Shown: positions 2,843 to 39,070, counted from the first letter of the stretch. The stretch: 40,375 nucleotides of DNA from a virus (IMGVR_UViG_3300037307_000307); one strand, 5' to 3'. Notes: generated by a model from the sequence alone, not told the origin. Program-made: numbers and translations.

Positions 2843-3300
2843 TGTGTTGCAGGCCTCCATAACCACCATTCTAATACTGTCATAGCATACATTAATGCTA
2901 CCACTCCAGCAGTAAGTGCTCCTATTATAGCCGCCGGTCCGCATGGACTTCCTGGAATACATCCAGCAAATTGACCAATATTTCTAGTTACGAAATCATA
3001 TAATCCTACTATAGGAACAGCTCCCATTGATAAAAATACTCCGGCTAATCCAGCCAATGTTAATATATCAGACCTTGATATAAATGAAGCAGCTGCTGTT
3101 ATTGCAGATACTGCGAATACAGAACCTACTATTAATGCTAAGAATGAATTGCCCGTCCATATCCAAGGCTGAATTAATATATCTAAGAATGAAGTTCCTG
3201 TTGTTCCATATGCTAATAATGATGGGTCCAGTGTTGCATTCAACAATCCCATGACTATATACATTACAAATAATACTACAAAGAATGGGCCTAATCTCAT
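2839..3300 (-). CDS. Multi-pass membrane protein of the virion module
   Basis: 153 aa with about four hydrophobic segments; 4-nt overlap with the adhesin gene stop. Confidence 0.8.
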   Translation of the reverse strand: MRLGPFFVVLFVMYIVMGLLNATLDPSLLAYGTTGTSFLDILIQPWIWTGNSFLALIVGSVFAVSAITAAASFISRSDILTLAGLAGVFLSMGAVPIVGLYDFVTRNIGQFAGCIPGSPCGPAAIIGALTAGVVALMYAMTVLEWWLWRPATQ

Positions 3301-6300
3301 CCTGAATACCTCCTGATTACACTAATACCATAACCCGCTCCTATGCAACTTGTTATTAAAGCAAATATGTATTGATTGAAGAATGGATATTGTGTCAATC
3401 CATTAAATGTAAACATTCCATACAAACTTAATATCCATATTATTGCACTCATTCCAACTACAAAAGCTCCTGGATGATTTAATTCATAACCTGTAGTTCT
3501 TCCTAATATAAATAGAACTATTACCAAGATAAAGAATATTACAAATATTCTGTTGAATTCTTGTTTGTTATAATCATCTCCAGGAATACATGCATTAAAT
3601 TCTGTAGCATAATCTTCAGATTCTTTTGGAGCCCATACAGTTTCATTCACCCATTTACATTGTGGGTCTGCTTCACATACAACTTCAGAAGTATATACTC
3701 CGCAATCAACTGTTGCCGTTCCCCAAGTACCAAAGAAATCTTGAAGATTTAACATCAATCTTCCTACTGCATTTACAGAATTGTTTTGATTTATTTTTAT
3801 AAATCTCCAATAAGCGTCTCCTTCTATTAATACTAAACTACTTTCATTTGTATTTGTTACAGATACATAATACATTCCTTTTATATTATCTCCAGTGAAT
3901 GTTGTATATACTAAACTCAATCCACAACTAGTTGCGTTACATCCAGCTGTATTAGCTAAACTATCATTTACAATTAAAACATTTCTAGTCTTAGCGTCTA
4001 CTAATTGAAATTTAACTCTTTGTAAAGTTTGATTAGATTTTGAATTATATACATTGAAAGTATAAGTTTCAGTTCCAGGTCTATTGATACCATCAGCTGG
4101 AGTTCTTGTGAAAGTTATACCGTCTATTAAAGAGGAAAATTCTTGTGCTGCTTCATTTTCACAATCTAATATTAAATTGTATTGTCCACTAGTTGGAGTT
4201 ATTGTTGAAGTTAATTGATTACATCCTCCACCTGAAGCAACTATTGTATAAGATGTGATTGGGCTCATGTAATATGAAATTGTTCCAGCAGTATCAGTAT
4301 ATCCATCATCTACAAGAGTTGAAGTTCCTGAAATTGTTCTATAAACTTGAACTCTAACTCCTTCAATGACTACATTTGTTTGAGCACTTATAGCTTGGAA
4401 TGTAACTGGACTTGTTCCAGAATCTATTAAATTTATAAGATAAAGTGTTACAGATGAAGTGGTATTTGATAAAGGTAAACTTTGCCAATTCCATATTTTA
4501 GTAGAGTAGCCTAAGTTTGGATTTCCGTATTGATAATCTCCATTTGTTAAAAGTATTGATGAATATGGAGGAGTGAAACAGAAATTATGATTTAGAGATG
4601 TTTGCTGACTCCCATTTATCAATGGACTGCTATATATGTATTGTTCTCCATAAGGGCTATCAGTTATGTTATAATCCCAAGTGGATTGAACTATAGTCGC
4701 ATTAATAGGAAGATTTGTTGTTTCATCTCTGTAATTTATTGTGAAGAATGTTACATTATTAGTTGTATTACAATAAGAATAATATGAATTTAATATAGTT
4801 ACATTCTGAGATGGAGAAACTTTTGATTGTCCTCCGTAAGATATATCCCAATAAAATGTTTTATTTCCCACTCCAGTAGGTATCCAAATACTTCTTGTGA
4901 AAGTAGCATTTACATTATTACCTGTTGTTGTTGCTGGATAAGATACTCCATTCCATATTAAACTTCCACTTAGATTTACAAATCCTGTAGATGTAACATT
5001 TATAGAATATGTTTGATTTGTCATTTCATATTGTTGAGCATTATAACTAGAGTTTCCGAATTGAACTGAGAAAGTTGTGAATGTATTATTTTGACTGTTT
5101 ATGCATTTAGATGTAGTACCATCTGTATAACAAACTCTTATCCCCCATGCATAAGAACCGTCAGGAACTTCTGCTGATGTTCTATTCCAACTTACATTCA
5201 CTGAATTTGTTCCAGATAAAACAGTGTTTTGAGTATTGTTTAATGTTCCGTTATTCCATAAATAAAATGTCGCGTTAACTAATGTTGATAATGTTGGATT
5301 TATTGTTGCTGAGAAAGTCATAATTGGTGGAATAACTACAGGAGAATTGTCAACTGGAATCATATCTGTTATTGTTACAAATCCTTCTTGATATAATGTC
5401 AATGTCCCAGCGCTTCCAGCTCCTCCTGAATTAGATTGATAAGTTGAACAATCTGGAGCATATGGACTATTATATCCTCCCGTTCCTCCACTTCCTGCAG
5501 TTTGATTTATTATAGAAGACAATGAAGTTGAGTTTGTTAAATATCTATAATATATTTTAACATTTCCAGCGCTAGCTCCTCCTCCACCTCCTCCTCCATA
5601 GGCTCCACAACCTGTTGCTCTTACAGACCAGGAATTGCTCACCCAAGTACCATAAGCGTTTGCTCCTCCGTTTCCTCCGTTAGTTCCGCTAGTTCCTCTA
5701 ACTAATATTGTATTTGATGAACCAAGTAATGTTAAATTTTCAGCTCTCAAAACTAAATTCAAACCAGGTCTTCCGGCACTACCTCCAGAACCTCCTCCAC
5801 CATCGCCAACTGAACCAGAGAAACAATTCCAACTCGAAACATGAGAACCGCTAGAACTTCCTCCACCGCCAGCTGCTCCATAGGAACCTCCTCCAGCTCC
5901 TCCAGTCGATGATATTGTACAACCATAATAACCTCCGCCACCTTGGTCAAATGAAGATGTTGGGCCTCCAGCTCCTCCGCTTCTTGAACCAGCTGCTCCA
6001 GGAGTTGATTGTACACAATTATCATTTGTAGATGTTGCTGAACTTCCACCTCCAGCAGGCCCGAATGGATATCCTCCAGCTCCTCCAGTACCAGAAGTTA
6101 CAGAACATCCAGCTATTACTCCATTACCAGAAGTACCACCACCTCCAAATCCACCACCTTGACTACCACCAATTAATGCACTACCTCCATTTGCAACACT
6201 AGGAGTTGTAAATGAATCTCCGAGATAACTGAAAGATGTTGCATTATATTGTCCTGGATTCAATCTAGATGACAAATCTATTGTTCCTAATACAGTCATA

Positions 6301-7292
6301 TTTGTTTTTGCCATAATATAGAATGCTGCACCAGTAACATTGTTTGTAGATAATGTTGTTCCAGAACCCAAATAAAAACTATTGAATTGATAAGCTCTGT
6401 CGGTCATAAGATAAAGAGTATTTCCTCCAACAGTATAGTCAACTCCATTCACCATATTTCCATATGTCTTAGTAGTTGTTGAGAAGTAAACATCTCCAAG
6501 AGAACCATTTCCATATACATCAGTTATGTTCCACCAGGCCAATTCTGTTATATCATTATTCTTTATTGTAGGAACCCAGTCGATTACTTGATTGAATCCT
6601 TTTTTTCCTGTTATTTTTACAATATATGTTCCAGGCTCTAATTCTTCATTATTATATTCTACAAATTCTTCAGAATAGGTTGTGACTTCTTTTGTTTTGC
6701 CAATGTCTTCATAAGTACATTCTTCATATTGCTTTGGAACTATTTCTTCTGAAATCAATACATTATTAACTCCTTTACTGATAGTAAAATCAACATTCAC
6801 CATTTTACATTGTTTCACTAAATCTTTTTCAGTTGTAGTTCTGCTTACATTTTTACTGATATATATTTTAACATCAATATCATTAGTATATTGAAGTTTT
6901 TCATTTCTAGTTTTTATATCATCTATTATAGAACTTTTTTTATATAAATCTACTTTGAGAATAGAATAGCAATCAATTGTACAATATTCTGTGTGGTCAA
7001 TTAATTCTAAATCTAATAATTTTCCACCACCAAATAATCCTAAGAATTTATCATCACTTATCTCTATTTTTGGATATTTCGATTTAATCATATCCTTCTC
7101 TTTATTATTATTTTTATCATTAACTAATTCTTTTATTTGATTTAAGTTTCCAGAAGTTACTCCGACAGAAATAGATTTATCTTTAGGTAAATAGCTATCA
7201 CTATATTTAACATCGATTGCACTAACCATAAAGGTCATTGATAGCATAAATACTATTGCTATCACTAACCCTAACAACATTTTATTCTTCAT
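3297..7292 (-). CDS. 1331-aa secreted, C-terminally membrane-anchored adhesin/tail-fibre-like glycoprotein
   Basis: N-terminal signal peptide (MKNKMLLGLVIAIVFMLSMTFMVSA), Gly-rich tract (~5400-6230), beta-rich S/T/N region with very many N-x-S/T sequons, and three C-terminal TM helices. Confidence 0.75.
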   Translation of the reverse strand: MKNKMLLGLVIAIVFMLSMTFMVSAIDVKYSDSYLPKDKSISVGVTSGNLNQIKELVNDKNNNKEKDMIKSKYPKIEISDDKFLGLFGGGKLLDLELIDHTEYCTIDCYSILKVDLYKKSSIIDDIKTRNEKLQYTNDIDVKIYISKNVSRTTTEKDLVKQCKMVNVDFTISKGVNNVLISEEIVPKQYEECTYEDIGKTKEVTTYSEEFVEYNNEELEPGTYIVKITGKKGFNQVIDWVPTIKNNDITELAWWNITDVYGNGSLGDVYFSTTTKTYGNMVNGVDYTVGGNTLYLMTDRAYQFNSFYLGSGTTLSTNNVTGAAFYIMAKTNMTVLGTIDLSSRLNPGQYNATSFSYLGDSFTTPSVANGGSALIGGSQGGGFGGGGTSGNGVIAGCSVTSGTGGAGGYPFGPAGGGSSATSTNDNCVQSTPGAAGSRSGGAGGPTSSFDQGGGGYYGCTISSTGGAGGGSYGAAGGGGSSSGSHVSSWNCFSGSVGDGGGGSGGSAGRPGLNLVLRAENLTLLGSSNTILVRGTSGTNGGNGGANAYGTWVSNSWSVRATGCGAYGGGGGGGASAGNVKIYYRYLTNSTSLSSIINQTAGSGGTGGYNSPYAPDCSTYQSNSGGAGSAGTLTLYQEGFVTITDMIPVDNSPVVIPPIMTFSATINPTLSTLVNATFYLWNNGTLNNTQNTVLSGTNSVNVSWNRTSAEVPDGSYAWGIRVCYTDGTTSKCINSQNNTFTTFSVQFGNSSYNAQQYEMTNQTYSINVTSTGFVNLSGSLIWNGVSYPATTTGNNVNATFTRSIWIPTGVGNKTFYWDISYGGQSKVSPSQNVTILNSYYSYCNTTNNVTFFTINYRDETTNLPINATIVQSTWDYNITDSPYGEQYIYSSPLINGSQQTSLNHNFCFTPPYSSILLTNGDYQYGNPNLGYSTKIWNWQSLPLSNTTSSVTLYLINLIDSGTSPVTFQAISAQTNVVIEGVRVQVYRTISGTSTLVDDGYTDTAGTISYYMSPITSYTIVASGGGCNQLTSTITPTSGQYNLILDCENEAAQEFSSLIDGITFTRTPADGINRPGTETYTFNVYNSKSNQTLQRVKFQLVDAKTRNVLIVNDSLANTAGCNATSCGLSLVYTTFTGDNIKGMYYVSVTNTNESSLVLIEGDAYWRFIKINQNNSVNAVGRLMLNLQDFFGTWGTATVDCGVYTSEVVCEADPQCKWVNETVWAPKESEDYATEFNACIPGDDYNKQEFNRIFVIFFILVIVLFILGRTTGYELNHPGAFVVGMSAIIWILSLYGMFTFNGLTQYPFFNQYIFALITSCIGAGYGISVIRRYSG

Positions 7293-7308: not shown

Positions 7309-7653
7309 TTATATTCCACTCTCCGTTGTTATTCTTCCTAATATTACTCTAGATACGCCAGCAATTAATACTGCCATAATTATATATGGAAGATATAAGT
7401 CAATTGATATGCAAGCAAGAGTGTTTGATTTCAAACTCGCATTATAACTATAAACACTGTTAGGGTCTCCGTAATAAGAATAACCTCTACAGTTAAGATA
7501 GTCTGATTGTTGTGCCATATTTAACAAAGTTGTTAATTGTGGTATAAGAGCTACCATAACTGCAATAGTCATTAATAAGAACAATAAATTTATTATCATA
7601 ACTTGTCCTTTTCTATTCATTGACTTTTTAGTGGATATTTTCCTTAAAACCAT
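7309..7653 (-). CDS. Minor capsid/pilin-like two-helix protein with class III signal peptide
   Basis: Basic leader ending RKG|Q, then a hydrophobic helix with Pro, a polar loop (two Cys, NAS sequon) and a second hydrophobic helix with Pro. GGAGG lies upstream of ATG 7653. Confidence 0.65.
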   Translation of the reverse strand: MVLRKISTKKSMNRKGQVMIINLLFLLMTIAVMVALIPQLTTLLNMAQQSDYLNCRGYSYYGDPNSVYSYNASLKSNTLACISIDLYLPYIIMAVLIAGVSRVILGRITTESGI

Positions 7654-10600
7654 TTCTGTCTACCTCCTTTTTGATTCTTTGAAAATAAATTACCTTTTAC
7701 TTTAGGATTTCTTGTTCTTGCAGCAGCCGCTCTAACTCCTCTCAATGATATTTCTTTCTTCTCTCCAGAAGTAATTATTCTAGCTCTTTCTTTTTGAACA
7801 AATGTTAATGCTTGCGGAGTCTTTGTTTTAGGAGCTCTGAAATAACTCAATGATTTTCCAGAAGGTCCTGCCAAACCTAATGTTCCAACTCTTCCTTTCT
7901 TTTGAACTAATCTAAATGTTGCGGCAGCTCCTCCCAATGTTCTTTTTATACCAAATTGAGTTGCTTCTTCTTTACTTAATAAGAATGGACTTTCAACTCT
8001 AAATTTCTTTCTTCTTCTAATTTCAACTACATATCCTACTTCTTCTTTAGGTCTTTTCTTTTCTTCTGGTCTTTTTCTAGCTTGAGCAAAATCAATTATA
8101 GGTGGAACTATTCTTGGACTAGGTGAAGGGCTAGGGCTAGGCGAAGGAGATGGAGATGGCGAAGGACTTGGACTAGGTGAAGGGCTAGGGCTAGGACTTA
8201 CACTAGGCGATGGACTTACAGAAGGTGAAGGTGAAACACTAGGCGAAGGACTTGGACTAGGTGAAGGAGATGGTGAAGGAGATACACTTGGACTTACGGA
8301 AGGACTTACTGAAGGTGAAACACTAGGACTTGCACTAACACTTGGACTTACACTCATTGAAGCTGAAATTGAAGCGCTAACACTTGGAGAAGTACTTATT
8401 CTAGGTGAAGGTGAAACAGCTCCACTAGGTAAGAATGCTTTTATTGCAGCAGAAGTAACTCCAGAAGGACTTTGCATATATCCTTTCAAAGTTTGTTCTT
8501 CCATAACTTTCTTTGGTAAGAATGTTGTTAGAGTTGTTGTACTCACTCCAGGATAACTAACTATCGCAGGAGAAGTAGTTATCTTAGAAGGAACAAATGT
8601 AGTAAATGCTTGTGAAGTAGTTAATCCAGATATTCCTTTTGGTGCAAATGCTTCAAATGCTGCAAAAGCTTGAGCTCCTTTTATTGCACCAGGTAATGCA
8701 CTAACTGTTACTGGAGCAGTCTTTGCTGCTATTACAGTTGGAACTGCAGAAAGTAATTGTTCAGTTGTAACTTGTGGAAACATTTTAGGTAATGTTGTTT
8801 CTAATCTTGCTAAAGATGCTTTCATCGAAGCTGCTCTAAATGGACTAATGGAATATTGAGATAAAGTTTTTTCTATCGCAAAGAAATCAACTACATCTTT
8901 TGCCACTCTATAATCTTTTGGTCCAATTGAAAGAGTTGTACCTGGAGTTGTTGGAGCTCTTAATTGAATTATAGAACCAGCCTTTTCCAATCCTCCTTGA
9001 CTAAGTTGTTCTATCAATATTCCTTTCTCAGATGTTGCTCCAGGATAAGTGAATTTAGTTTGATATGGAATCTTTGGTCCTAATCCAAATATAGTCGAAG
9101 GAACTTCTTCTGGAGTGTCTATTCCGTGAGCGTCTAAGAAGTTATCCCATTCTTTACCATATTTACCTTGAATCAAACCAGTATCTTTTTGCCATTTAAC
9201 TGCAAGACCGTCTTTACCTTGTGCTGCTTTAAGTGCTTTATAAAGTTCTTCTACTTTTGGAATAGCTTCTTGCTTAGGGAATCTTACGTCATAATCTCCA
9301 GCTGGTTTTCTTCCGGGACCAAATTTACCTCCAGGTAATTGTGCTTGATAAGCAGATGAACCAGCTAAGTAATTAGCTCGAAGAGATGGAGACTCTCTGA
9401 ATTGTTTTTGTAACCATTCAACAAATACTTTTTGCTGTGCTTTATTCATATACTTGAAAGCTTCGGTTTGTTCTAATTGTAGTTTACCTGGTTTAACATC
9501 TATACCATATCCTTTAGTTGCAAGATTAATAATATCTTTTACTCCAGCTCCAAACACAGGTCCTAATTGTTGTTCTATTGCTTTTCTAGCAAATGCTGTT
9601 TGTATTGCAGTGGCTGGAGTGAATCCTGTTGCTTGTGGAAGAATGGATTGTACATCTGGAAATAATATATCTTTCTTAAATCCAAATCCCCATTTGTATT
9701 TACCTTGTGATATTAATAAGTCAGTCATGCTCGCTGCTTTTGTTTCAGGAGTGAATGCTTTAAATGCAGCAGGAGAAACTTTCAAACCAATATCTGTTCT
9801 AAACCAACTTGGAGCATAAGCAACTGTTTCTTTTCCAGGTAAGAATATCTGAGCTTGTTCACTCTTCCAACTAACTCCTCTCGGTACGAAAGCTTCATAT
9901 GCAGCCCTTGAATAAGTTGTCGGAGTCTGTTGTGCTTGAATATATTTTTGACCAGTGTAAGCACCAGTGGTTCCAAAGAATGTTGCTTTAGATGGTATAA
10001 ATGCTGTTGCTGTAGTTCCAGTTGCTCCAGGTATTGATGCTCCAAATGCCCATGTAGCAGTTGTAGCTCCATTTTGTAATGTTAAAGTTCTACCAAATAC
10101 TGGATATGCTTTAGTTCCCCATTGTGCATATAGTCCTTGGAATGTTGCTTTATCTGCTGGAGTTAAAACCATTTCTCCATATGTTGGAGAACCTATCTTA
10201 GTATCCATCTTTAATGTTTGTGCTCTAGCTTCTCCAATCTTTACAGGGAATGTTCCTTTATATAGAGAAACTCCAGTAGCAACTCCTACTGTGAATATTC
10301 CTCCAGCTTTCTCAACTTTAGTAGCACCAGGTTTAGCTATTTGGAATCCTCCATAAGCTGTGGTAACAGAAGATGGAACAAACTTAAATAATCCTCCAGC
10401 TGTACCTATAGCTAATGCTTTTTCTGGAGATGTTGGTAATATTGATGAAACAAACTTAGTTCCAAATATTCCACCAGCTTCAGCCCAAGTCATAAGTTCA
10501 TCTGATTTATTAGCATAATCTTTTGCAAGCTTTTTATATTCATCACTTGATACAAATTCTTTTTGAACATCCTTCACATATTGACTATTATTGAATTCTG

Positions 10601-13600
10601 TTTGTGCATCAAGAGCAGTTATTTCTCCTTTGTTGATTTTATCAAGATATTGTTTTTCAAATTCTGCATTCAATTTGCTTTCATATCTAGAAGTGAAAGC
10701 TTGATTGATAGCCAATGTTTCTGGTTCATCTCCCATTCTAGCTTCAACTCTACTGGCCAAACTTTCTTCCCATCCCTTGAATACTTTTTGAATATCTTTA
10801 GAAACTTCATTAACTGGAGCAGTTGAACCTAATACAACATAAGGAGTTACAACTCTTCCAAATATTTGTCTACCTCCTTGTGTACTCAAAGTATATCCTA
10901 AACCTTGTCCGGGAGTTTTTACAACTCCAGGTATTTTTAGATAAGGTCCTAATCCTGCTACTCCTGCAGCAACTAATGGACCGCCAGCTTCAGCCCATGC
11001 TGGTTTAAATCCTCCACCTCTTTCTTTCATCATTTCTATTTGTTCACCAGTGAAACCTTTAGTTTGTAATAAAGCTAAATTAGATTCGGTAAATCCTTTT
11101 TTCTCAAATCCTTCTATTTGTGTTTCTGTAAATCCTCTTTCTCTTAACATACCAGCATCTTGAGCACTTATTTTTGGAGCTGTTGCAATTGTTGCTCCTT
11201 TTGGAAGATATTCTATAGCTAATGCTCCGGCAACCCAAGGACCTACGCCAGGAATTAATGTTGCGACTTCTTCAACTGTAGTTATTCCTTCTACTGTCTT
11301 TTGTTGTATTTCTTTTTTCTTAGCAGCTTCTTCTGGAGTTCCTGGGCCATATGTTTCTACATATTCATATCTATCTAATTCAAATGGACTTCCGGCTTTT
11401 CTTATAGTATAATATTTACCGGTTGTTGGGTCATAAGTTGGTTCTCCTCTAAACCACTCAGCTGTTCCTATTTCTGCAGCTCCTTTTCCAATTCCTTGTT
11501 TCAAAGCTCCCAATCCTTTTCCTAACAAAAATACTCCTGGTGCTGCTGTCATTCCAAGTCTTAACCATCTATCACCACTAGAACCTGTATATTCTCTTCC
11601 TGCAAAGAATTCGAATTCTCCACCAACCCATAAATCTCCTCCTTGTCCTGATTGTTCAAATCCTTTTCCTAATGGGTCATAAATTGTAGATGTACCTTTT
11701 GGAGCTTCTACTACTCCTAGAACTTTACCAACTTCTTTTGGTAAACTTATTCCTCCTTCAACTAATCCAAATGTTTGACCTGTAGCAATTCCGACAGGTT
11801 TTATTCCTCCTTCATAAACAGAAACTGCTCCTTTTCCAATTCCTTCACCTACTGGTTTTAAGAAACCTTCATATATTGATTTACCTATTTGAGCTTCAAC
11901 TTGAGCTAATTGTTTTTGAGATTGAATATATGCTTGAGTATAAGGAGATTCTAAAACTGTCTTTCCAAATTCTACAGAAGGCTGTACTATTTTTTCACTA
12001 ACAAATTCTTGTACTTCAGGTTTCTTAAGATATTCGATTCCTTCTTTAACTACAAATGGAGCGGCTATAACAGGAGAAGTTAATACTAAACCAACTTTAA
12101 CAGGAGTTGGTGCTGTTTCTATCTGTCCTCCAATCCAACTAACTCCTTTTCCAATTCCTTCACCTACTGGTTTTATAACTCCTTCATAAGTTGGAACTAA
12201 TGCTTTTTCATATACAAATTCTCCAGCAGAACCGATTCCTTGTCCAACTGGTTTTATAACTCCTTCATAAGTTGGAGTTATTATTTTTTCTTGTATTTCT
12301 TTTCTTACTTCAGGTTTAGTTAATGCAGCTCCTATTATTATTGGTGCTGCAGGAGTTAACAATCCAAGTGCTTGAACATACGGAGAACTAACTATTCCTT
12401 GAAATCCTAATTGTTCAACATTTGGTTTAGGAGCTATATATGAAGGAGTTTCACCTGGTTTTGTTATTATAGTTCCAGTTGGAACTGTTGTTGGTTGATT
12501 TAATAATCTCTGTAATTCTGGAGTCATAGTAACTTGGGTTCCAGTTGGTTGATTGATATTTGTATTAGAAGTTTTGCTTAAATCAATATATCCAGGTTCT
12601 CCTGGAGCAATACCTTTAGCTTCTGGAAGTATAACATAATCCTTTGTTTTAGAAGTATCAAACATTATTTTCTCTGGACCATAAGTAGTTATGTTTATTG
12701 TTTCTCCTCCAGAACCCATTTTTGTTTCACCGTATGTTACTTCTCTTCCTGTTTCTGTTTTAGTTGTAACTCCTCCAGCGAATAAATTACTACCAAAAAC
12801 AACTCCTGGAAATTCTTTTACTGTGTATGTTTTACCTTGAGTCATTTCATAAGGAGTGGCTGTTAATATGAATCCTTTATCTGATAAATTTTCAGAAGAG
12901 GATTTAGTTTCTTTTGTTTGTGGATTATACCAATATCCTCCATACTTTCCAGATGCTTCGGTTGGACTTACAACTCCTAGATTTTTACTTAACCATTGCG
13001 GAACATCTTTACCTTCTTTTACTAACTGATTATAATAATTATACAAACCTCCAGTTTGTACTCCTTTGATATTTGGATTTGCAAATTCTGGTTTGCCTTG
13101 AATAACATTTCTCCATTTAGAACCATAGATATATTCCATATCTCCTTGACTCAATGTTTTACCAGAGTCGACTTTATTTTTTAAATAATCGGGAAGAGTT
13201 TCTTTATTAAGAAAAAATACATTTCCATTTTTATCTTTTACAGTAGTTGTACCAGGATTTTGTTTAATATATTCTTCTATTTGTTTTTTCTGTTCAGCCA
13301 TTGCTTTATCATATTCCTGGTCTGCTCTTTCTCTCTGTCTATAATAGCTGGCTAGATTTGAAATGTTTCCTTGTAGAAAACCTCTTATAACGTCTGGTTT
13401 TTCTTTTGATGCATATTCTTTCCATCCTCTTTGTTCCGCACGATACAAATCAATATCATCTTCTAATTCATCTATTCTTTCTCTTCTTTCTTCTCCTTTA
13501 TATCTATCTCGAACTTTTTCAATCTCAGCTTCTTTTCTTGCAATCTTGTCATCAAAATATTTTATCTTTTCATTAACTTTCATCATAGCTAAATCATATT

Positions 13601-13880
13601 CCTTTTGAACCAATTCAGCTCTTCCAAATTCCGGAACTTGTTTTGATACAGAAACTTCAAATTCTTCTTCAGCTCCTTCAACATCTTGTTTTGTTTTCTT
13701 TCTTTCTCCTGATGCTTGTTGTAAAGCACTATAACTTCCTAGTCTAGATTGTGTTGCTCCAGCCCTAGCAACAGCTCCACTAAATTGTATAACTGGTTTA
13801 TCCAGTTCTCCTTTTACAGTTGTAAATGATTGCCTTGCTGCAAGAATCTGATTTTTTACATCTTCTGGTATTTGTGCCAT
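7644..13880 (-). CDS. 2078-aa giant protein (putative virion-associated multidomain protein) with internal repeats, a nucleotidyltransferase-like domain, a Ser-Pro linker and a basic C-terminus
   Basis: Single long ORF with no signal peptide. Charged coiled-coil N-terminus, YEGxIKPVGxGIG x4, GFTExQ-like x3, LAGSSA...DYDV...LD...K...KDVVD, (SP)n tract, then a K/R-rich tail. Confidence 0.8.
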   Translation of the reverse strand: MAQIPEDVKNQILAARQSFTTVKGELDKPVIQFSGAVARAGATQSRLGSYSALQQASGERKKTKQDVEGAEEEFEVSVSKQVPEFGRAELVQKEYDLAMMKVNEKIKYFDDKIARKEAEIEKVRDRYKGEERRERIDELEDDIDLYRAEQRGWKEYASKEKPDVIRGFLQGNISNLASYYRQRERADQEYDKAMAEQKKQIEEYIKQNPGTTTVKDKNGNVFFLNKETLPDYLKNKVDSGKTLSQGDMEYIYGSKWRNVIQGKPEFANPNIKGVQTGGLYNYYNQLVKEGKDVPQWLSKNLGVVSPTEASGKYGGYWYNPQTKETKSSSENLSDKGFILTATPYEMTQGKTYTVKEFPGVVFGSNLFAGGVTTKTETGREVTYGETKMGSGGETINITTYGPEKIMFDTSKTKDYVILPEAKGIAPGEPGYIDLSKTSNTNINQPTGTQVTMTPELQRLLNQPTTVPTGTIITKPGETPSYIAPKPNVEQLGFQGIVSSPYVQALGLLTPAAPIIIGAALTKPEVRKEIQEKIITPTYEGVIKPVGQGIGSAGEFVYEKALVPTYEGVIKPVGEGIGKGVSWIGGQIETAPTPVKVGLVLTSPVIAAPFVVKEGIEYLKKPEVQEFVSEKIVQPSVEFGKTVLESPYTQAYIQSQKQLAQVEAQIGKSIYEGFLKPVGEGIGKGAVSVYEGGIKPVGIATGQTFGLVEGGISLPKEVGKVLGVVEAPKGTSTIYDPLGKGFEQSGQGGDLWVGGEFEFFAGREYTGSSGDRWLRLGMTAAPGVFLLGKGLGALKQGIGKGAAEIGTAEWFRGEPTYDPTTGKYYTIRKAGSPFELDRYEYVETYGPGTPEEAAKKKEIQQKTVEGITTVEEVATLIPGVGPWVAGALAIEYLPKGATIATAPKISAQDAGMLRERGFTETQIEGFEKKGFTESNLALLQTKGFTGEQIEMMKERGGGFKPAWAEAGGPLVAAGVAGLGPYLKIPGVVKTPGQGLGYTLSTQGGRQIFGRVVTPYVVLGSTAPVNEVSKDIQKVFKGWEESLASRVEARMGDEPETLAINQAFTSRYESKLNAEFEKQYLDKINKGEITALDAQTEFNNSQYVKDVQKEFVSSDEYKKLAKDYANKSDELMTWAEAGGIFGTKFVSSILPTSPEKALAIGTAGGLFKFVPSSVTTAYGGFQIAKPGATKVEKAGGIFTVGVATGVSLYKGTFPVKIGEARAQTLKMDTKIGSPTYGEMVLTPADKATFQGLYAQWGTKAYPVFGRTLTLQNGATTATWAFGASIPGATGTTATAFIPSKATFFGTTGAYTGQKYIQAQQTPTTYSRAAYEAFVPRGVSWKSEQAQIFLPGKETVAYAPSWFRTDIGLKVSPAAFKAFTPETKAASMTDLLISQGKYKWGFGFKKDILFPDVQSILPQATGFTPATAIQTAFARKAIEQQLGPVFGAGVKDIINLATKGYGIDVKPGKLQLEQTEAFKYMNKAQQKVFVEWLQKQFRESPSLRANYLAGSSAYQAQLPGGKFGPGRKPAGDYDVRFPKQEAIPKVEELYKALKAAQGKDGLAVKWQKDTGLIQGKYGKEWDNFLDAHGIDTPEEVPSTIFGLGPKIPYQTKFTYPGATSEKGILIEQLSQGGLEKAGSIIQLRAPTTPGTTLSIGPKDYRVAKDVVDFFAIEKTLSQYSISPFRAASMKASLARLETTLPKMFPQVTTEQLLSAVPTVIAAKTAPVTVSALPGAIKGAQAFAAFEAFAPKGISGLTTSQAFTTFVPSKITTSPAIVSYPGVSTTTLTTFLPKKVMEEQTLKGYMQSPSGVTSAAIKAFLPSGAVSPSPRISTSPSVSASISASMSVSPSVSASPSVSPSVSPSVSPSVSPSPSPSPSPSPSPSVSPSPSVSPSPSVSPSPSPSPSPSPSPSPSPSPSPSPSPSPRIVPPIIDFAQARKRPEEKKRPKEEVGYVVEIRRRKKFRVESPFLLSKEEATQFGIKRTLGGAAATFRLVQKKGRVGTLGLAGPSGKSLSYFRAPKTKTPQALTFVQKERARIITSGEKKEISLRGVRAAAARTRNPKVKGNLFSKNQKGGRQKWF
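8113..8420 (-). repeat. Ser-Pro(-Val) low-complexity coding repeat
   Basis: Degenerate 6-bp-period repeat encoding SPSVSPSPSP...; codons vary synonymously. Confidence 0.9.
11790..12290 (-). repeat. Internal coding repeats YEG(V/F/G)(I/L)KPVG(E/Q)GIG
   Basis: Four peptide copies. The DNA repeat ctggttttataactccttcataagttgga occurs at about 12167 and 12248. Confidence 0.85.
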
Positions 13881-14089
13881 TAACTTCTATCCTCCCAACT
13901 AAATATACGAATAGGAATCTTCTTTGGCATTTTAACTGGATATATATTTTCTTTAGTATCCATGTCTACAAACTTCTTCAATTCTTTTTTAGGTAGTGTT
14001 ATAGATATTTGACCATTACTTTTATTTTTAAAAAGTCTTGCTTTAATATCTAGAAATTTAGTTTGATTCTTATCTTTAATATTAGCCAT
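13880..14089 (-). CDS. AbrB/SpoVT-like DNA-binding protein (likely start MANIK at 14089)
   Basis: KARLFKNKSNGQISITLPKKELKK fits the swapped-hairpin pattern; ATG is 29 nt from the TATA start. Confidence 0.55.
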   Translation of the reverse strand: MANIKDKNQTKFLDIKARLFKNKSNGQISITLPKKELKKFVDMDTKENIYPVKMPKKIPIRIFSWEDRS

Positions 14090-14130
14090 ACAGATTACTA
14101 GTAAATGCACTTTTTAAAGATGGTTTACAA

Positions 14131-15917: not shown

Positions 15918-16148
15918 TTAAACTATTCCTGCTTGTCTCAAGCTAGAATAGGTTACTGCGATACCTATGCCAAGTATTCCAAGTGCGAAGAATCCAGGTA
16001 CCATCAAAAGTACTGAAGCTCCCCATGAACTTGAATTTGCAAGGTCTCCGCCAGTTGCAGCTACAAGGTTAACTTGCTGTGCAATTGGTCCGATTAAGGA
16101 TACACCAATAAGGATGGATACGAATCCACCAATAAGGTTTGCTATCAT
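15918..16148 (-). CDS. Spindle-shaped virus major capsid protein, copy A (SSV1 VP1/VP3-like)
   Basis: 76 aa; two hydrophobic helices each with a Pro, separated by a short polar loop with an NSS sequon. The pattern aligns by eye with mature fusellovirus VP1 as I recall it. Confidence 0.8.
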   Translation of the reverse strand: MIANLIGGFVSILIGVSLIGPIAQQVNLVAATGGDLANSSSWGASVLLMVPGFFALGILGIGIAVTYSSLRQAGIV

Positions 16149-16303
16149 TTTGGGTTATATTATGTTCATCCCTCCCATGACTGTAGGGAGGACTCTTTCC
16201 TTTATAAAGATGGTTCATACAAAATTCTACTAGTAAAATAATAAAACAAATATATTTTCACATATTGAAAATGTTTAAATATTCTAGTTTCAATACAATA
16301 CAG

Positions 16304-16798
16304 ATGACAATGAGATTGAATGTTGGAAGTGGTATAGATTATAGAGATGGTTGGATAAATTTAGATTATTACAATCCTGCTTATAAAATAGATGTGATGC
16401 ATGACTTGAATATTTTTCCATATCCTTTTGAAGATAATTCTTTTGATGAAATAGAATGTAAAATGGTTTTAGAACATTTATCAAACCCAATAAAAACATT
16501 ACAAGAATTTATTAGAATAAGTAAGAGTGGTTGTAAAATTCATATAGTAGTTCCTCATGCAACTACTTACGCAAACTTTACAGCATTTGACCATAGAGCA
16601 AATTTTACTGAATCTAGTTTCGATGAAAAGATATTATTAGAAGCCGGGCTGAGTGAAATGAAATTAACAGACTTTCATTTTATATATGTTAACAAATGGA
16701 AAAAATATATTCCATTTAAAGGATATCTTAAGATATTTTTAAATGGACTGTATGATGATTTGTCATTTACTTTCGAAGTTATTAAAAATAAAAAATAA
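16304..16798 (+). CDS. Class I SAM-dependent methyltransferase (type 11-like), inserted antisense between capsid genes
   Basis: RLNVGSG (motif I), WINLD, HDLNIFPYPFEDNSFDEI, VLEHL; tttaaata TATA about 30 nt before ATG 16304. Confidence 0.85.
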   Translation: MTMRLNVGSGIDYRDGWINLDYYNPAYKIDVMHDLNIFPYPFEDNSFDEIECKMVLEHLSNPIKTLQEFIRISKSGCKIHIVVPHATTYANFTAFDHRANFTESSFDEKILLEAGLSEMKLTDFHFIYVNKWKKYIPFKGYLKIFLNGLYDDLSFTFEVIKNKK

Positions 16799-16815
16799 AA
16801 ATAATAATTTAAATC

Positions 16816-16832
16816 CTGCTATTTTGTAGCAG
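16816..16832. terminator. Hairpin between convergent methyltransferase and capsid copy B
   Basis: ctgcta-ttttg-tagcag flanked by A/T runs. Confidence 0.5.
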
Positions 16833-16841
16833 TTATTTTTC

Positions 16842-17072
16842 TTAAACTATTCCTGCTTGTCTCAAGCTAGAATAAGTTACAGCAATTCCTATACCTAATA
16901 TTCCTAGAGCAAAGAATCCTGGTACCATTAAAAGTACAGAAGCTCCCCAACTAGAAGAATTAGCTAAATCTCCACCAGCTTGTGCGGTTTGATTAATTAT
17001 TCCAGCAACTGGTCCTATTAAAGAAACGCCAACTAATATAGATACGAATCCGCCTATTAAATTTGCAATCAT
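16842..17072 (-). CDS. Major capsid protein, copy B
   Basis: Near-identical to copy A; differs mainly in PVAGIINQTAQA, which adds an NQT sequon. Confidence 0.8.
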   Translation of the reverse strand: MIANLIGGFVSILVGVSLIGPVAGIINQTAQAGGDLANSSSWGASVLLMVPGFFALGILGIGIAVTYSSLRQAGIV

Positions 17073-17263
17073 TTTAAATTTTCAATCCTCCCATTATATA
17101 TATAAAAGAATTCTCTTTTTAAACATGGTTCGTAGTAATTTCTACTAGTAAAATAAATTAAATAAAAAAATAAGGGACAGGCGTAAACAAGTTTTGCTCG
17201 GTATTTAACTTCACAGCAACTCGCCTCATTTACCGCCCCGTGCGGTTAGCTAAGAATTTCTTC

Positions 17264-17494
17264 TTAAACTATTCCAGCTTGTCTAAGACTTGAATAAGTT
17301 ACAGCAATTCCTATACCTAGTATACCTAGTGCGAAGAATCCTGGAACCATCAATAAGACAGATGCTCCCCAAGTAGAAGAGTTGTAAACAGCTCCTCCTG
17401 CAGCAGCGACAAGGTTAACTTGTGATGCTATTGGTCCGATTAAGGAAACACCTATTAATATTGAGACAAAGCCTCCTATTAAATTTGCTATCAT
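17264..17494 (-). CDS. Major capsid protein, copy C
   Basis: Near-identical to copy A; loop reads ASQVNLVAAAGGAVYNSST. Confidence 0.8.
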   Translation of the reverse strand: MIANLIGGFVSILIGVSLIGPIASQVNLVAAAGGAVYNSSTWGASVLLMVPGFFALGILGIGIAVTYSSLRQAGIV

Positions 17495-17727: not shown

Positions 17728-18687
17728 TCAAACTTTCTCTCCCGAGAATGCGCGTATTCCAAATCTAACTTGTTTTTCTTCTATAGATACATCTGGCAAT
17801 TTACAAAGCATTTCAGATATCGTTCTAGCATCATAACCTTCCTTCCACATAGTATACAATAGTGCATCTCTTTGACGTTTCCATTTCCTTTCTATATTCT
17901 TAACTTCCTTTTGTTTGATAGCTTCCTGTTTTGCTTTCTCATACATATCCTTATCAAGAGGAAGGAATGGGCTGAACCTTCCTGTGAATGATGGACGAGC
18001 TCCAGAATATTTTGAGGCAGTTCCGGATTTCTTTTTACCATTAATGTATAAATTTTCTTTTTGACCTTCATTATAGAAATTAAAAAATCCTCTCTCCATT
18101 CTTTTATTTGTAAAAACATCTACAAGAAATATAGAACGGGAGATTGCATAATCCTCATGTAACTTAAAAAAATTTGGGAGTACGATAAGAATCACGTGGC
18201 CGTATTGACCGCACTCTTGGAAGAAGTCTTGCATTGCTTTATTAATAGCGGTCATGGCGGCCGATGAGTCTAGACCAGCTCTACCTTCATCATAAACAAT
18301 AACTTGATTTCTTCCATACTTATTGTAAAGTTCTCTTGCCTTTGTTTGTAAATCATCTGGAGTGAATACGACATTATCTTCTACATTAAATCTAACAGGA
18401 GTTATGGGTTTGCTAGCTACAAACCATTTACCAGTAGATTCTTCTTTGGCCATGGAACCACCTGCAATTAACCAAGCTAGAAAATAAGCTACCTGTTGTG
18501 CAAGTGTTGATTTTCCGACACGAACCTTTCCATGGCCAGAGAAGATTCCTACTACATCGTAAGAATGTTTTAAATAATCTGGAATGCCCATTAGATTGAT
18601 TGCTAGATATTCATCCATGTAATAACCAATTCTTTTCTTATTGAATTTAGGGTCGACCCAAACGTGGTCGGTAACTTGCATGCTCAT
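17728..18687 (-). CDS. FtsK/HerA-superfamily P-loop ATPase (morphogenesis/genome-packaging type)
   Basis: Walker A GKVRVGKS, Walker B VIVYDE, downstream ILIVLPNFFKL strand; sits directly upstream of the capsid genes. Confidence 0.8.
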   Translation of the reverse strand: MSMQVTDHVWVDPKFNKKRIGYYMDEYLAINLMGIPDYLKHSYDVVGIFSGHGKVRVGKSTLAQQVAYFLAWLIAGGSMAKEESTGKWFVASKPITPVRFNVEDNVVFTPDDLQTKARELYNKYGRNQVIVYDEGRAGLDSSAAMTAINKAMQDFFQECGQYGHVILIVLPNFFKLHEDYAISRSIFLVDVFTNKRMERGFFNFYNEGQKENLYINGKKKSGTASKYSGARPSFTGRFSPFLPLDKDMYEKAKQEAIKQKEVKNIERKWKRQRDALLYTMWKEGYDARTISEMLCKLPDVSIEEKQVRFGIRAFSGEKV

Positions 18688-30330: not shown

Positions 30331-31449
30331 ATGAAACAAGTAACACACGATGAATTGAGAGTCAATTTACTACATCACTATAATAAAAAGATAGCACTTT
30401 TTGTTTATGGTAGATTTGGAATTGGTAAATCAGATACCGTTCAGTTTGTAGCAAATCAGATTGCAGAACAGAAAGGTAGAAAATTTGTTAATTGGAATAA
30501 ACTATCGGAGGAAGAAAAGAAACAAGTGTTCGATAATCCTAAAGATTATTTTACACTCATCGATATTCGTTTATCAGAATATGATAGTTCTGATATTAAG
30601 GGATTGCCTATTTTCAAAACAGATAATAAGGCAATAGAGTTCAAAGTTCCATTTTGGGCTTTGCTAACTACAAAAGCGGATAGCGATGGTATTCTATTTT
30701 TTGATGAGATTAATCTTGCCCCACCATTAGTTATGTCGAGCTGTTATAAGATAATTTATGATAGAGTTATCAACGATATGCCGATAAATAGTTCTTGGGG
30801 AGTTTTTGGAGCAGGTAATCTTGATGAAGATAGGGCTTATACAAATTCGATGGCACCCCCATTAAAAGACAGAGCTTCGGAGGTTGAATTAGTCGGAGCC
30901 TCAAGTGATAAGTGGAGTGCTTGGGCTATGGAACATAATATAGAACCTAGAATAATTGGTTTTATTAGTTTCAAGAATCAGGCACTTTATAAAGTAGATT
31001 TCAACGATAAACAGAAATTTACTACACACAGAGGATGGGAAAGAGTATCTACTCTTATCAAAGGTATTGAAGATGATTATTCAACTATGGAGCTTTTAAG
31101 TTCATCAGCGATTGGAGAGGGAATTGCAAAAGAGTTTGTTGCATTTTGCAAAATATCACAGGAAATAGATTTGCCTGGAATATTAAATAATCCTGAAAGA
31201 ATTAAGACAATAAACGAGTTGTCTGTGAAATGGTTTATCAATACTGCGATTGCAGAGCAATACGCAAACAATAAGATTAAGTTTGATAAAGTGATGGGAG
31301 TAAGTAAGGCATTAGATGAAATAGATAATGTCGAACTTGTTGCATATCTTTGGAAGATGTGTAATGGGTTAAGCAAGAGCTTCAAGAAGGAATTCTTGAA
31401 ATCGGTTGATGATAACTTAGTTAAGAAATATCAAAAATACTTAATATAA
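30331..31449 (+). CDS. MoxR-like AAA+ ATPase
   Basis: Walker A GRFGIGKS, DIRLSE...DIKGLP, Walker B ILFFDEINLA, AGN sensor and R finger (PLKDR). Confidence 0.85.
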   Translation: MKQVTHDELRVNLLHHYNKKIALFVYGRFGIGKSDTVQFVANQIAEQKGRKFVNWNKLSEEEKKQVFDNPKDYFTLIDIRLSEYDSSDIKGLPIFKTDNKAIEFKVPFWALLTTKADSDGILFFDEINLAPPLVMSSCYKIIYDRVINDMPINSSWGVFGAGNLDEDRAYTNSMAPPLKDRASEVELVGASSDKWSAWAMEHNIEPRIIGFISFKNQALYKVDFNDKQKFTTHRGWERVSTLIKGIEDDYSTMELLSSSAIGEGIAKEFVAFCKISQEIDLPGILNNPERIKTINELSVKWFINTAIAEQYANNKIKFDKVMGVSKALDEIDNVELVAYLWKMCNGLSKSFKKEFLKSVDDNLVKKYQKYLI

Positions 31450-31512
31450 AAAGATATTAAACAGATTTTTGATTACTATGTTATTTCTCCGATAGCTTAA
31501 TTGCTATATTTC

Positions 31513-31564
31513 GGCAGGGGAGGTTTTTCCTCACGGAAAGTTCCATAAATTTTCCTCTCCTGCC
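31513..31564 (+). other. GC-rich intergenic branched stem-loop
   Basis: ggcaggggagg...cctctcctgcc 11-bp stem (one G.U) enclosing tttcc-tcac-ggaaa. Confidence 0.5.
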
Positions 31565-31669
31565 TTCATATTCAGAAATGTTATTTTCTAAAAGAGGTGG
31601 CGACTGGCGAACGGCGACGCCAGATAAGAGTTTATTAAAATTCGTTGGTATATTATAGGTATAAATAAA

Positions 31670-33010
31670 ATGGAATTAACAACATTAGATAGATTGAGAA
31701 GAGCAAGAATACAGATTCAGAAAAGTAATCCTTTCTTTGCATATTTAGTTTTGCAATTAAAATTCAAAGAGGCTAGAGAGGGCGAGTTACCGGATTATGC
31801 AGGTATGGGAGTTGCTATAGATGGCACTCTTGTTTATAAAAAAGAGTTTGTTGATAAGATAACTGAACCGGAACTTATCGGAGTTCTCGTCCACGAGATA
31901 TTACACTTGTCCTTATTACATTTAACAAGAAGACAAAAAAGGGAACCTACTATATGGAATGTTGCTGCAGATATATGCGTTAATCAGATTGTAAAAACAA
32001 ATGGATATAGTCTTCCTCGAGGTGCTATTGTTTCAGATTATAATAATAATTGTGAATTTATGGGAGTTAAGATTAACAAGTGCGATAAGAAAACTGCTGA
32101 GCAAGTTTATGAGGAATTAGAACACTTAAAGAGTAAAATGAAAAAAAGATTTGTTCTTGGATATCCATCTATGAACGATAAAGAGGGTGGCGGAAATGAA
32201 GATGGCACTCCATTCGATATTCATATCGAGGGCAAAGATGAGGGAAACAAAAATCAAAACGGAAAAGACGAAAAAGATAATAATAATCAAAATAAAGGAA
32301 ATGGTTTCAATTCAAATTTAACAGAAGAAGAAAAAAGGGAGTGGGAAGAGTTTTGGAAAAGCAAAGCTAACGAGGCTTTGGTTACTGCGAAACTAAAAGG
32401 AAATGTTCCTGCTGGAATTGAAAGATTGGTTGGGCAATTATCAGAGGCAAAAATTGGGTGGAGGGAAATACTCCAAAGATATGTTCAAAGAGCTATTCCT
32501 TATGATTATACTTATTCTAATCCTAGTAAGAAATCGGTGGCTACGGGCTATTATATGCCTAATACAATAAAAGATTATATTGATGTGGTGGTTGCTGTTG
32601 ACACTTCTGGGAGTATTGGTCAGGAGGAACTTAAGGAGTTCTTATCGGAAATTGTGGGTATTGCGAAAGCATTTAGCACTAGAGTTAAAATGAGATTGCT
32701 CACTCACGATGTTAAGGTCTGGGATGATTTACTTATTCAAAATGGAAATATAGCTAAGATTAATGAATTGAAAGTTAAAGGAGGAGGTGGAACATCTCAT
32801 AAAGAAGTTTTAGATTATGTTAATGAAAAATACAAAACTACAAGATTGTTAATCTGTTTTACTGATGGTGATTCTGATTTAGATGAAATAGATGATGGTA
32901 AATATAGATTTGATAAGGTTTTTGTCATATCAGAAAACGGACACGATAATCAACTCAGAGATTTTAAAGCTCATATAATTAAATTAAGGGATTTCAAATA
33001 TGACAACTAA
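31670..33010 (+). CDS. HExxH metallopeptidase-like plus vWA domain protein (DUF2201-like), MoxR partner
   Basis: VHEILH, WNVAADI, acidic low-complexity linker, VDTSGS MIDAS, GGGGT and FTDG. Confidence 0.9.
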   Translation: MELTTLDRLRRARIQIQKSNPFFAYLVLQLKFKEAREGELPDYAGMGVAIDGTLVYKKEFVDKITEPELIGVLVHEILHLSLLHLTRRQKREPTIWNVAADICVNQIVKTNGYSLPRGAIVSDYNNNCEFMGVKINKCDKKTAEQVYEELEHLKSKMKKRFVLGYPSMNDKEGGGNEDGTPFDIHIEGKDEGNKNQNGKDEKDNNNQNKGNGFNSNLTEEEKREWEEFWKSKANEALVTAKLKGNVPAGIERLVGQLSEAKIGWREILQRYVQRAIPYDYTYSNPSKKSVATGYYMPNTIKDYIDVVVAVDTSGSIGQEELKEFLSEIVGIAKAFSTRVKMRLLTHDVKVWDDLLIQNGNIAKINELKVKGGGGTSHKEVLDYVNEKYKTTRLLICFTDGDSDLDEIDDGKYRFDKVFVISENGHDNQLRDFKAHIIKLRDFKYDN

Positions 33011-38815: not shown

Positions 38816-39070
38816 ATGTTAAACTGGATTAAAAATAAACTAGCACAAAGAAGAATTAACTTAGAGAATGAGATTAGACAAACTCATTACGATTTGCTAC
38901 ATATTGGTATGCACGGAAAATTAACTTGGGATATGTATTCACACACCCAGGATAAATACACTCATCTTCAGGCAACATATTTGCAAAGATATGGTCATTA
39001 TTTTAGGGAGGGAGATATTGGGGCAAACTTGCCGGATAGGTCAGTACATGGAACAGAACGGAAAAGATAA
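38816..39070 (+). CDS. Hypothetical protein
   Basis: 84-aa ORF starting 4 nt after a triple heptad. Confidence 0.55.
   Translation: MLNWIKNKLAQRRINLENEIRQTHYDLLHIGMHGKLTWDMYSHTQDKYTHLQATYLQRYGHYFREGDIGANLPDRSVHGTERKR

Follow-up and report, generated by a model that had tools for sequence, protein, structure and literature searches.

What does the largest gene of the viral genome fragment IMGVR_UViG_3300037307_000307 encode, and where would its product act? This stretch of DNA (40,375 nucleotides; hereafter, the window) contains a gene for a giant protein of 2078 amino acids (P0001), in which the first-pass annotation of the sequence had recognized a possible nucleotidyltransferase (NTase) domain of the Pol-beta superfamily similar to the AbiEii and MenT toxins. 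To our knowledge, spindle-shaped viruses are the most widespread archaea-specific type, the ways in which they enter and take over cells are scarcely known, and hardly any of their large proteins have an annotation. Amino acids ~1465-1725 of P0001 form a conserved domain with predicted NTase topology and an intact catalytic signature, and this domain is a conserved hallmark of a family of proteins of 800-2100 amino acids that, in spindle-virus-like archaeal elements, are encoded beside the AAA+ ATPase. The gene, the domain and the sequence motifs in question are as follows:

7644..13880, minus strand: gene of the giant protein P0001, a single open frame of 2078 amino acids, the largest gene of the window
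8706..9488, minus strand: NTase-like domain, amino acids ~1465-1725, as seen in alignment A4, the AlphaFold model and the structural searches described below
9348-9371, minus strand: YLAGSSAY, amino acids 1504-1511
9285-9299, minus strand: GDYDV, amino acids 1528-1532
9126-9140, minus strand: FLDAH, amino acids 1581-1585
8982-9020, minus strand: ILIEQLSQGGLEK, amino acids 1621-1633
8883-8909, minus strand: RVAKDVVDF, amino acids 1658-1666

All five motifs had been named in the first-pass annotation and were located at amino acids 1504-1666 (8883-9371) of the open reading frame. The domain span given there (8820-9450, amino acids 1477-1687) was somewhat too narrow, whereas the remark that the gap between the GS and DhD motifs is unusually long agrees with the measured 20 residues, compared to 9-13 in the canonical arrangement.

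The relatives of P0001 are few and distant. Searches of Pfam, PHROGs, PADLOC and PDB sequences with P0001, the domain and all 18 members of the eventual alignment gave zero matches, as did a tblastn search of phage records, a word-index search of proteins with the domain alone as the query, and scans of viral contigs and genome contigs. An exhaustive phmmer search against 1.8 billion cluster representatives detected six weak relatives (E-values from 1.5e-7 to 1e-3; 29-33% identity; 823-1405 amino acids), a profile search contributed two more, and a metagenome scan yielded ten loci, including a close ortholog on a 53.7-kb metagenome contig (L009) that is encoded by a single open reading frame of 2026 amino acids and is 53% identical to P0001. 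Altogether, 17 distant relatives were gathered, and no stand-alone form of the domain (113-457 amino acids) was found in the search. The resulting alignment (A4) consists of 18 rows with a mean column identity of 30%, most rows being 20-31% identical to P0001 and one 75% identical.

The only invariant columns of A4 are D1529, D1531 and D1583 (18 of the 18 rows). Because the sole invariant columns are the predicted aspartates, on whose conservation in homologs the first-pass annotation had made its proposal depend before any homolog was known, the motif match is beyond chance. Beyond the Asp triad, only G1507 and K1661 are nearly invariant (17/17 in a per-residue column table drawn over 17 sequences), followed by S1508, H1585, D1588, P1590 and D1665, each conserved in 16/17 of these sequences, and by K1633 and R1641 (15/17 each). 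An Arg preceding the DhD motif was invariant in the first alignment of 7 rows and lies 3-8 residues ahead of DhD in most of the other rows. The spacer between GS and DhD varies mostly from 14 to 26 residues across the family and reaches ~50 in one member. In the comparison of P0001 with its ortholog on L009, the best-conserved window of 100 amino acids is 1501-1600 (82%), against 54% for the region upstream of the domain. The conserved elements, some of which have counterparts among the motifs of DUF1814, the family of AbiEii and MenT, are arranged as follows:

9357..9362, minus strand: motif I, G1507-S1508 (hGS), between model strand 1 and helix 2
9288..9311, minus strand: motif II, R1524-x4-D1529-Y-D1531, at model strand 2
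9105..9134, minus strand: third-carboxylate motif, D1583-A-H1585-G-I-D1588-T-P-E-E, with D1583 at the end of model strand 5
8958..8984, minus strand: equivalent of DUF1814 motif III, K1633-x7-R1641, within the helical lobe
8886..8900, minus strand: equivalent of DUF1814 motif IV (+DxxD), K1661-D-V-V-D1665, where a long helix begins

An AlphaFold prediction from the single sequence was unusable (predicted local distance difference test score, pLDDT, 42). The model built from A4 has a mean pLDDT of 62, with values of 83-97 at model residues 10-30 and 65-125; it is based on a shallow alignment of 18 sequences and is of low confidence outside the core. The domain consists of an N-terminal lobe (amino acids ~1475-1590), an alpha/beta core, and a C-terminal lobe (~1620-1725) that is helical. 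In the model, a long helix is followed by a short strand, the GS motif and a helix, then by a strand with DhD and another helix, then by three strands, the last of which carries D1583, and by the helical lobe with K1633/R1641 and K1661/D1665. The GS loop, modeled at low confidence, is located between strand 41 and helix 45-50, whereas D1529 and D1531 correspond to model residues 65 and 67 (strand E66-69) and D1583 to residue 119 (strand 113-122). The predicted topology is that of a Pol-beta NTase core with a helical second lobe.

The structural comparisons with this model point in the same direction. In the Foldseek search of PDB, 49 of the 50 best rows are proteins of the NTase fold, among them ANT(2''), CCA-adding enzymes, poly(A) polymerases, NF90/NF45, MenT1 and the Mimivirus polyadenylate synthase as well as CD-NTases, OAS, cGAS, PolX and RsfS. 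The list of AlphaFold DB clusters is headed by three uncharacterized proteins of 1003-1269 amino acids from the same family as P0001, and the named rows that come after them are NTases, including five AbiEii/AbiGii clusters. The shape search of the ESM Atlas returned CCA, Poly_A_pol_cat, AbiEii and NTP_transf_5 clusters with template modeling (TM) scores of 0.33-0.40 (0.35-0.45 for the AbiEii clusters), and the Swiss-Prot structural rows are mostly CD-NTases, ANT(2''), CCA enzymes, RsfS and OAS. Language-model feature searches with two family members found Poly_A_pol_cat, DUF7275/7277 and aminoglycoside nucleotidyltransferase clusters at 0.90-0.95. A wide VIA-align structural search is hardly informative on the core because it is dominated by generic helical bundles that match the C-terminal lobe.

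Taken together, the conservation of the Asp triad and of GS, the topology of the AlphaFold model, the lists of structural matches and the language-model neighbors support the Pol-beta NTase fold, which we consider highly probable, as the first-pass annotation had proposed; in the AlphaFold model, an analysis that it had suggested, the order of predicted elements fits an NTase core. A glycosyltransferase or a HAD-type DxD enzyme was also considered and was rejected because such folds are missing from every structural list.

Which branch of the superfamily the domain belongs to is a separate issue. Four motifs have been described for DUF1814/AbiEii (Dy et al., 2014, PMC3985639): motif I, hG[GS], with a spacer of 15 instead of 9-13 residues; motif II, containing an Arg that is missing from other Pol-beta enzymes; motif III, a C-terminal Lys/Arg helix with K173 and R180 in AbiEii; and motif IV, the family-specific +DxxD pentad with D192. 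The active site of MenT3 brings together D80, K189 and D211 (Cai et al., 2020, PMC7450476). Each of the four motifs has a counterpart in the P0001 family: the GS-DhD spacer likewise exceeds the canonical length, an Arg stands shortly ahead of DhD (R1524 in P0001), and both the Lys-Arg helix motif and +DxxD are present in the helical second lobe. The AbiEii clusters in AlphaFold DB were matched with E-values of 0.035-0.16, mostly over query residues 65-249, that is, over both lobes. Because every DUF1814 motif has a counterpart, the domain would work like, and is plausibly derived from, the AbiEii/MenT branch, to judge from the sequence motifs.

Several findings limit this interpretation of the domain, and some of them the assignment to NTases at large. 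None of the structural matches outside the family of giant proteins is significant; the MenT1 rows of the Foldseek search (8an4, 8an5) are weak (E-values of 0.5-1.3), and the alignment of A4 with ANT(2'')-Ia by hhalign (P 7e-4, probability 27%) spans just 41 columns. No member of the alignment matches PF08843 at E-values up to 10, and PADLOC detects none. AbiEii and MenT are stand-alone toxins of 200-300 amino acids, whereas the domain described here is embedded in viral proteins of 800-2100 amino acids, and no AbiEi-like Pfam match that would indicate an antitoxin-like partner (AbiEi/MenA) was obtained for the neighboring genes. The phosphorylated Ser78 of MenT3, two residues before the first Asp, is not conserved in the P0001 family, and just 10/17 sequences have the first of the two Asp residues of motif IV. 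Further differences are the gap between motifs III and IV, 28 residues in P0001 compared to 15-22 in DUF1814, and an additional conserved motif, D-x-H-x-x-D-x-P, in the P0001 family. Given the lack of matches in PF08843 and PADLOC, the weak structural matches, the missing antitoxin partner and the non-conserved phospho-acceptor Ser, membership in the AbiEii/MenT family is supported at the level of motifs only, the sequences being too diverged for the current family models. The likeness noted in the first-pass annotation thus stands for all four motifs and not for family membership. A PF08843 gene was found neither on Lactococcus cremoris SK11 plasmid 3 nor on either of the two Thermus pTT27 plasmids.

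Three other known proteins or domains resemble the P0001 domain in part. ANT(2'')-Ia (PF10706) is the best Foldseek row in PDB (4xje, E-value 0.07) and the third row in Swiss-Prot, and a cluster containing PF10706 is among the language-model neighbors of the family; in the hhalign comparison with the enzyme of plasmid pRAY, the strand with Arg and DhD and the next helix fall onto the DDIDL region, but nothing in P0001 points to an antibiotic substrate. The PF19244 (Poly_A_pol_cat) and DUF7275/DUF7277 domains of giant viruses and phages are the nearest named language-model clusters for two family members (0.92-0.95), and they recur in the ESM Atlas and BFVD structural lists; however, PF19244 is carried by just 11-26% of the members of the matched clusters, there is no sequence match, and the DUF1814-type motifs of the C-terminal lobe were not found in the descriptions of these domains. 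The best viral structural match is a large protein (1125 amino acids) of an isolated spindle-shaped archaeal virus, the Nitrosopumilus spindle-shaped virus (A0A514K2U2, automatically named 'IgA FC receptor'), with an E-value of 6e-4 and a probability of 0.95 over 222 columns in the BFVD search; the identity is just 15%, and the comparison with P0001 is by structure search only.

Where the enzyme would act depends on the rest of the protein and on its gene neighborhood. The N-terminal part of P0001 consists of a hydrophilic start, a charged, coiled-coil-like region and two hydrophobic segments (amino acids 501-521 and 593-612); Pfam searches with the regions outside the domain produced coiled-coil noise only. 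Downstream of the domain are two compositionally distinct regions:

8115..8414, minus strand: Ser/Pro linker, amino acids 1823-1922, 82% S+P
7647..8114, minus strand: basic C-terminal tail, amino acids 1923-2078, with 40 K+R and 12 D+E

All 17 full-length or near-full-length relatives share a common layout of a variable N-terminus, the enzyme domain, a Ser/Pro linker (60-95% S+P across 40 amino acids) and a basic tail (net charge of +7 to +22 over the last 120 amino acids), and most of the tails contain the motif G-Y-x-P-x-F...[ST]-G-x-E-x-R. The basic tail had neither a language-model match in the ESM Atlas search nor a family match.

The neighborhood of the giant gene includes the following genes, with those of distant loci (L011, L012 and L013) given for comparison:

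17728..18687, minus strand: P-loop AAA+ ATPase, with BLAST matches to two of the distant loci (L007 and L008)
15918..17494, minus strand: three genes for capsid-protein-like proteins of 76 amino acids with two hydrophobic helices each, similar to phrog_5402 and phrog_11172
3297-7292, minus strand: very large downstream protein of the window
14542-16917 of L011, 14278-18078 of L012 and 9487-13224 of L013: very large downstream proteins of these loci

Synteny with L009 extends over the entire left arm of the window, whereas the giant protein and the P-loop ATPase are the only two genes recognizably shared with the distant loci. In L007, L008, L011 and L012, the ATPase adjacent to the giant gene matches phrog_5484 ('DnaA-like') with E-values from 1.5e-11 to 8e-6, and that of the window does so weakly (E-value 0.04); judging by sequence, the ATPases adjoining the giant genes are of the fusellovirus type. 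The 76-amino-acid proteins match phrog_5402 and phrog_11172 ('virion structural protein') with E-values of 1e-4 and 2e-4. A two-helix capsid protein together with an AAA+ ATPase is considered to be the hallmark pair of spindle-shaped viruses (bioRxiv 10.1101/2025.02.15.638363; ICTV Thaspiviridae profile), and this pair is represented here, at the level of genes, by the capsid-like 76-amino-acid proteins and the ATPase. The distant loci also encode integrases and large downstream LamG proteins. The very large downstream proteins are probably adhesins or receptor-binding proteins.

P0001 has no signal peptide at its N-terminus, hence its synthesis in the cytoplasm can be inferred. The capsid-like and adhesin-like neighbors, the lack of a signal peptide and the basic tail fit an internal component of the virus particle; a putative delivery to the host by the virion is based on context only, namely on the capsid-like genes, the lack of a signal peptide and the tail. 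For the first-pass description of P0001 as a structural-module protein, the capsid-like neighbor genes speak in favor, and the gene context is its only basis. Certain tailed bacteriophages package enzymes in their virions and inject them with the genome, namely the N4 virion RNA polymerase, P1 DarB and T4 Alt. P0001, if it is a large enzyme-bearing protein of the particle that acts in the newly infected cell, would be an analog of these proteins, which differ in belonging to tailed phages and to other enzyme classes.

The explanation that we favor, with moderate confidence for the whole, is that P0001 combines an NTase domain with the role of a particle component and transfers a nucleoside monophosphate (NMP) to a target in the host cytoplasm. 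Under this scenario, P0001 would be made in the cytoplasm and then built into or onto the particle, its basic tail perhaps binding the DNA. The active site would consist of the GS loop, as the binding site for the phosphates of a nucleoside triphosphate (NTP), of D1529, D1531 and D1583, as the ligands of two metal ions, and of K1633/R1641 and K1661/D1665, supplied by the helical second lobe, and NMP would be transferred from NTP to a hydroxyl of the target by two-metal-ion catalysis. By analogy with MenT and AbiEii, the target would most likely be an RNA 3' end, such as the tRNA acceptor stem. Since the host cytoplasm supplies NTPs, the reaction would proceed there, upon entry or in the course of virus production: NTP-dependent chemistry is confined to the cytoplasm and, therefore, the enzyme would act either in the newly infected cell, if borne by the particle, or in the producing cell.

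The second of these settings leads to the alternative that fares best, possible albeit unlikely, in which an active NTase serves the virus in the producing cell, by nucleotidylylating itself or another viral protein or by adding nucleotides to viral DNA or RNA in the course of assembly, and is not a delivered effector. The catalytic evidence is the same, the basic tail and the Ser/Pro linker, kept in all relatives, link the enzyme to what is probably a nucleic-acid-binding region, and the antitoxin-like partner that would be expected for a toxin made in the producing cell was not found. Furthermore, self-modification of DUF1814 enzymes by auto-phosphorylation is known (PMC11375011; bioRxiv 10.64898/2026.01.19.700257). 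However, no target can be named for such an activity, and the fusion into a giant protein amid capsid-like and adhesin-like genes suits a particle component at least equally well.

A more far-reaching version of the particle-borne NTase, rather unlikely as a whole, would have a widespread group of spindle-shaped archaeal viruses, which includes integrating viruses of 20-40 kb and possibly the cultivated Nitrosopumilus virus, carry a particle-borne MenT/AbiEii-like toxin domain that is attached to the genome through the linker and the tail and, on entry, nucleotidylylates the acceptor ends of host tRNA or another RNA so as to seize or stall translation. If this reading is correct, these viruses turn a toxin type of bacterial anti-phage defense against the host.

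Some proteins of the NTase fold, such as RsfS/MALSU1 and NF45/NF90, suggest that the domain might be a non-catalytic structural or binding module. The known inactive relatives of this kind have lost the acidic triad, whereas in the P0001 family the triad accounts for the only invariant columns among sequences with an overall identity of 20-31%, and GS, K1633, R1641, K1661 and D1665 are conserved as well, which makes the loss of activity improbable. Finally, a DxD-type enzyme of another kind, or a conserved orphan domain with motifs that are NTase-like by coincidence, would accord with the matches to known NTases all being below significance and with the shallowness of the model, but five structure libraries and the language-model search agree on one superfamily and the motifs occupy the expected secondary structure elements in the expected order and spacing, so that this explanation is extremely improbable.

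The superfamily and the motif pattern of the P0001 domain are known already; what appears to be new is a branch that is not seen by the family models, forms part of giant fusion proteins of archaeal viruses and lacks an antitoxin. Judged mainly by titles and abstracts, none of the papers in the searched collection that mention both spindle-shaped viruses and NTases concerns such a domain. The AbiEii/MenT-type pattern, so far derived from bacterial toxins of toxin-antitoxin and abortive infection systems, is thus extended to a virus-encoded, fused and antitoxin-less form, and a testable enzymatic function is proposed for the one large protein that, besides the ATPase, is common to diverse spindle-virus-like elements. 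If the domain is active, this group may carry an enzyme acting on host or viral nucleic acids. The catalytic residues for mutation are now defined, and the Nitrosopumilus spindle-shaped virus provides a cultivable system in which packaging and substrate can be tested.

Several other features of P0001 and of the window were noted. A motif consisting of a small residue followed by F-x-P-(S/K/R/G/E) occurs in ~10 copies in P0001, six of them preceding the enzyme domain and four following it (such as TAFIPSK, EAFVPRG, KAFTPET, EAFAPKG, TTFVPSK and KAFLPSG), in two regions:

9615-10382, minus strand: F-x-P motif region before the enzyme domain, amino acids 1167-1422
8427-8648, minus strand: F-x-P motif region after the enzyme domain, amino acids 1745-1818

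Altogether, F-x-P is found 12 times in P0001 compared to 6.7 +/- 2.4 in shuffled sequence, and similar motifs flank the domain in two relatives (P0003 and P0007); these motifs might represent a structural repeat or sites of processing. The tails of P0001, its ortholog on L009 and another relative (P0006) carry a longer variant of the tail motif, with the C-terminal ...SGEKKEISLRG. The interval 8001-10000 has a GC content of 0.38 and a GC skew of +0.06, unlike the rest of the left arm (skew of about -0.2), and the tract coding for the Ser/Pro region (8115-8414) falls within this deviant interval; elsewhere in the window, the sign of the skew flips near 20-21 kb, at the switch of gene orientation. 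Immediately upstream of the giant gene is a small open reading frame:

13880-14110, minus strand: open reading frame of 69-76 amino acids, with its stop exactly at the start of the giant gene (translational coupling)

Its product is 81% identical in L009 and contains ...NGQISITLPKK..., which to the eye resembles AbrB/SpoVT, and has no Pfam match; a complex prediction for the domain and the 69-amino-acid product, considered as a candidate antitoxin-like partner, gave a score of 0.01, which weighs neither for nor against binding. Very large proteins are encoded downstream of the giant gene at every locus, with Laminin_G_3 in three distant loci, and that of the window (1331 amino acids) has a signal-peptide-like N-terminus and no Pfam match. 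Elsewhere in the window, two regions of the plus strand were noted:

30331-33010, plus strand: region including a protein of 446 amino acids with a DUF2201_N metallopeptidase (E-value 4e-39) and a VWA domain (E-value 2e-13)
38991-40373, plus strand, running off the end of the window: methyltransferase-like protein, with sub-threshold to borderline matches to N6_N4_Mtase and Methyltransf_15

The 446-amino-acid protein is preceded by a P-loop protein of 372 amino acids, and the pair looks like a MoxR/VWA-type system. The methyltransferase-like protein also shows a match below the cut-off (E-value 0.006) to Tox-ART-HYE1, an ADP-ribosyltransferase, and is 28% identical to a protein of 303 amino acids encoded in L009.

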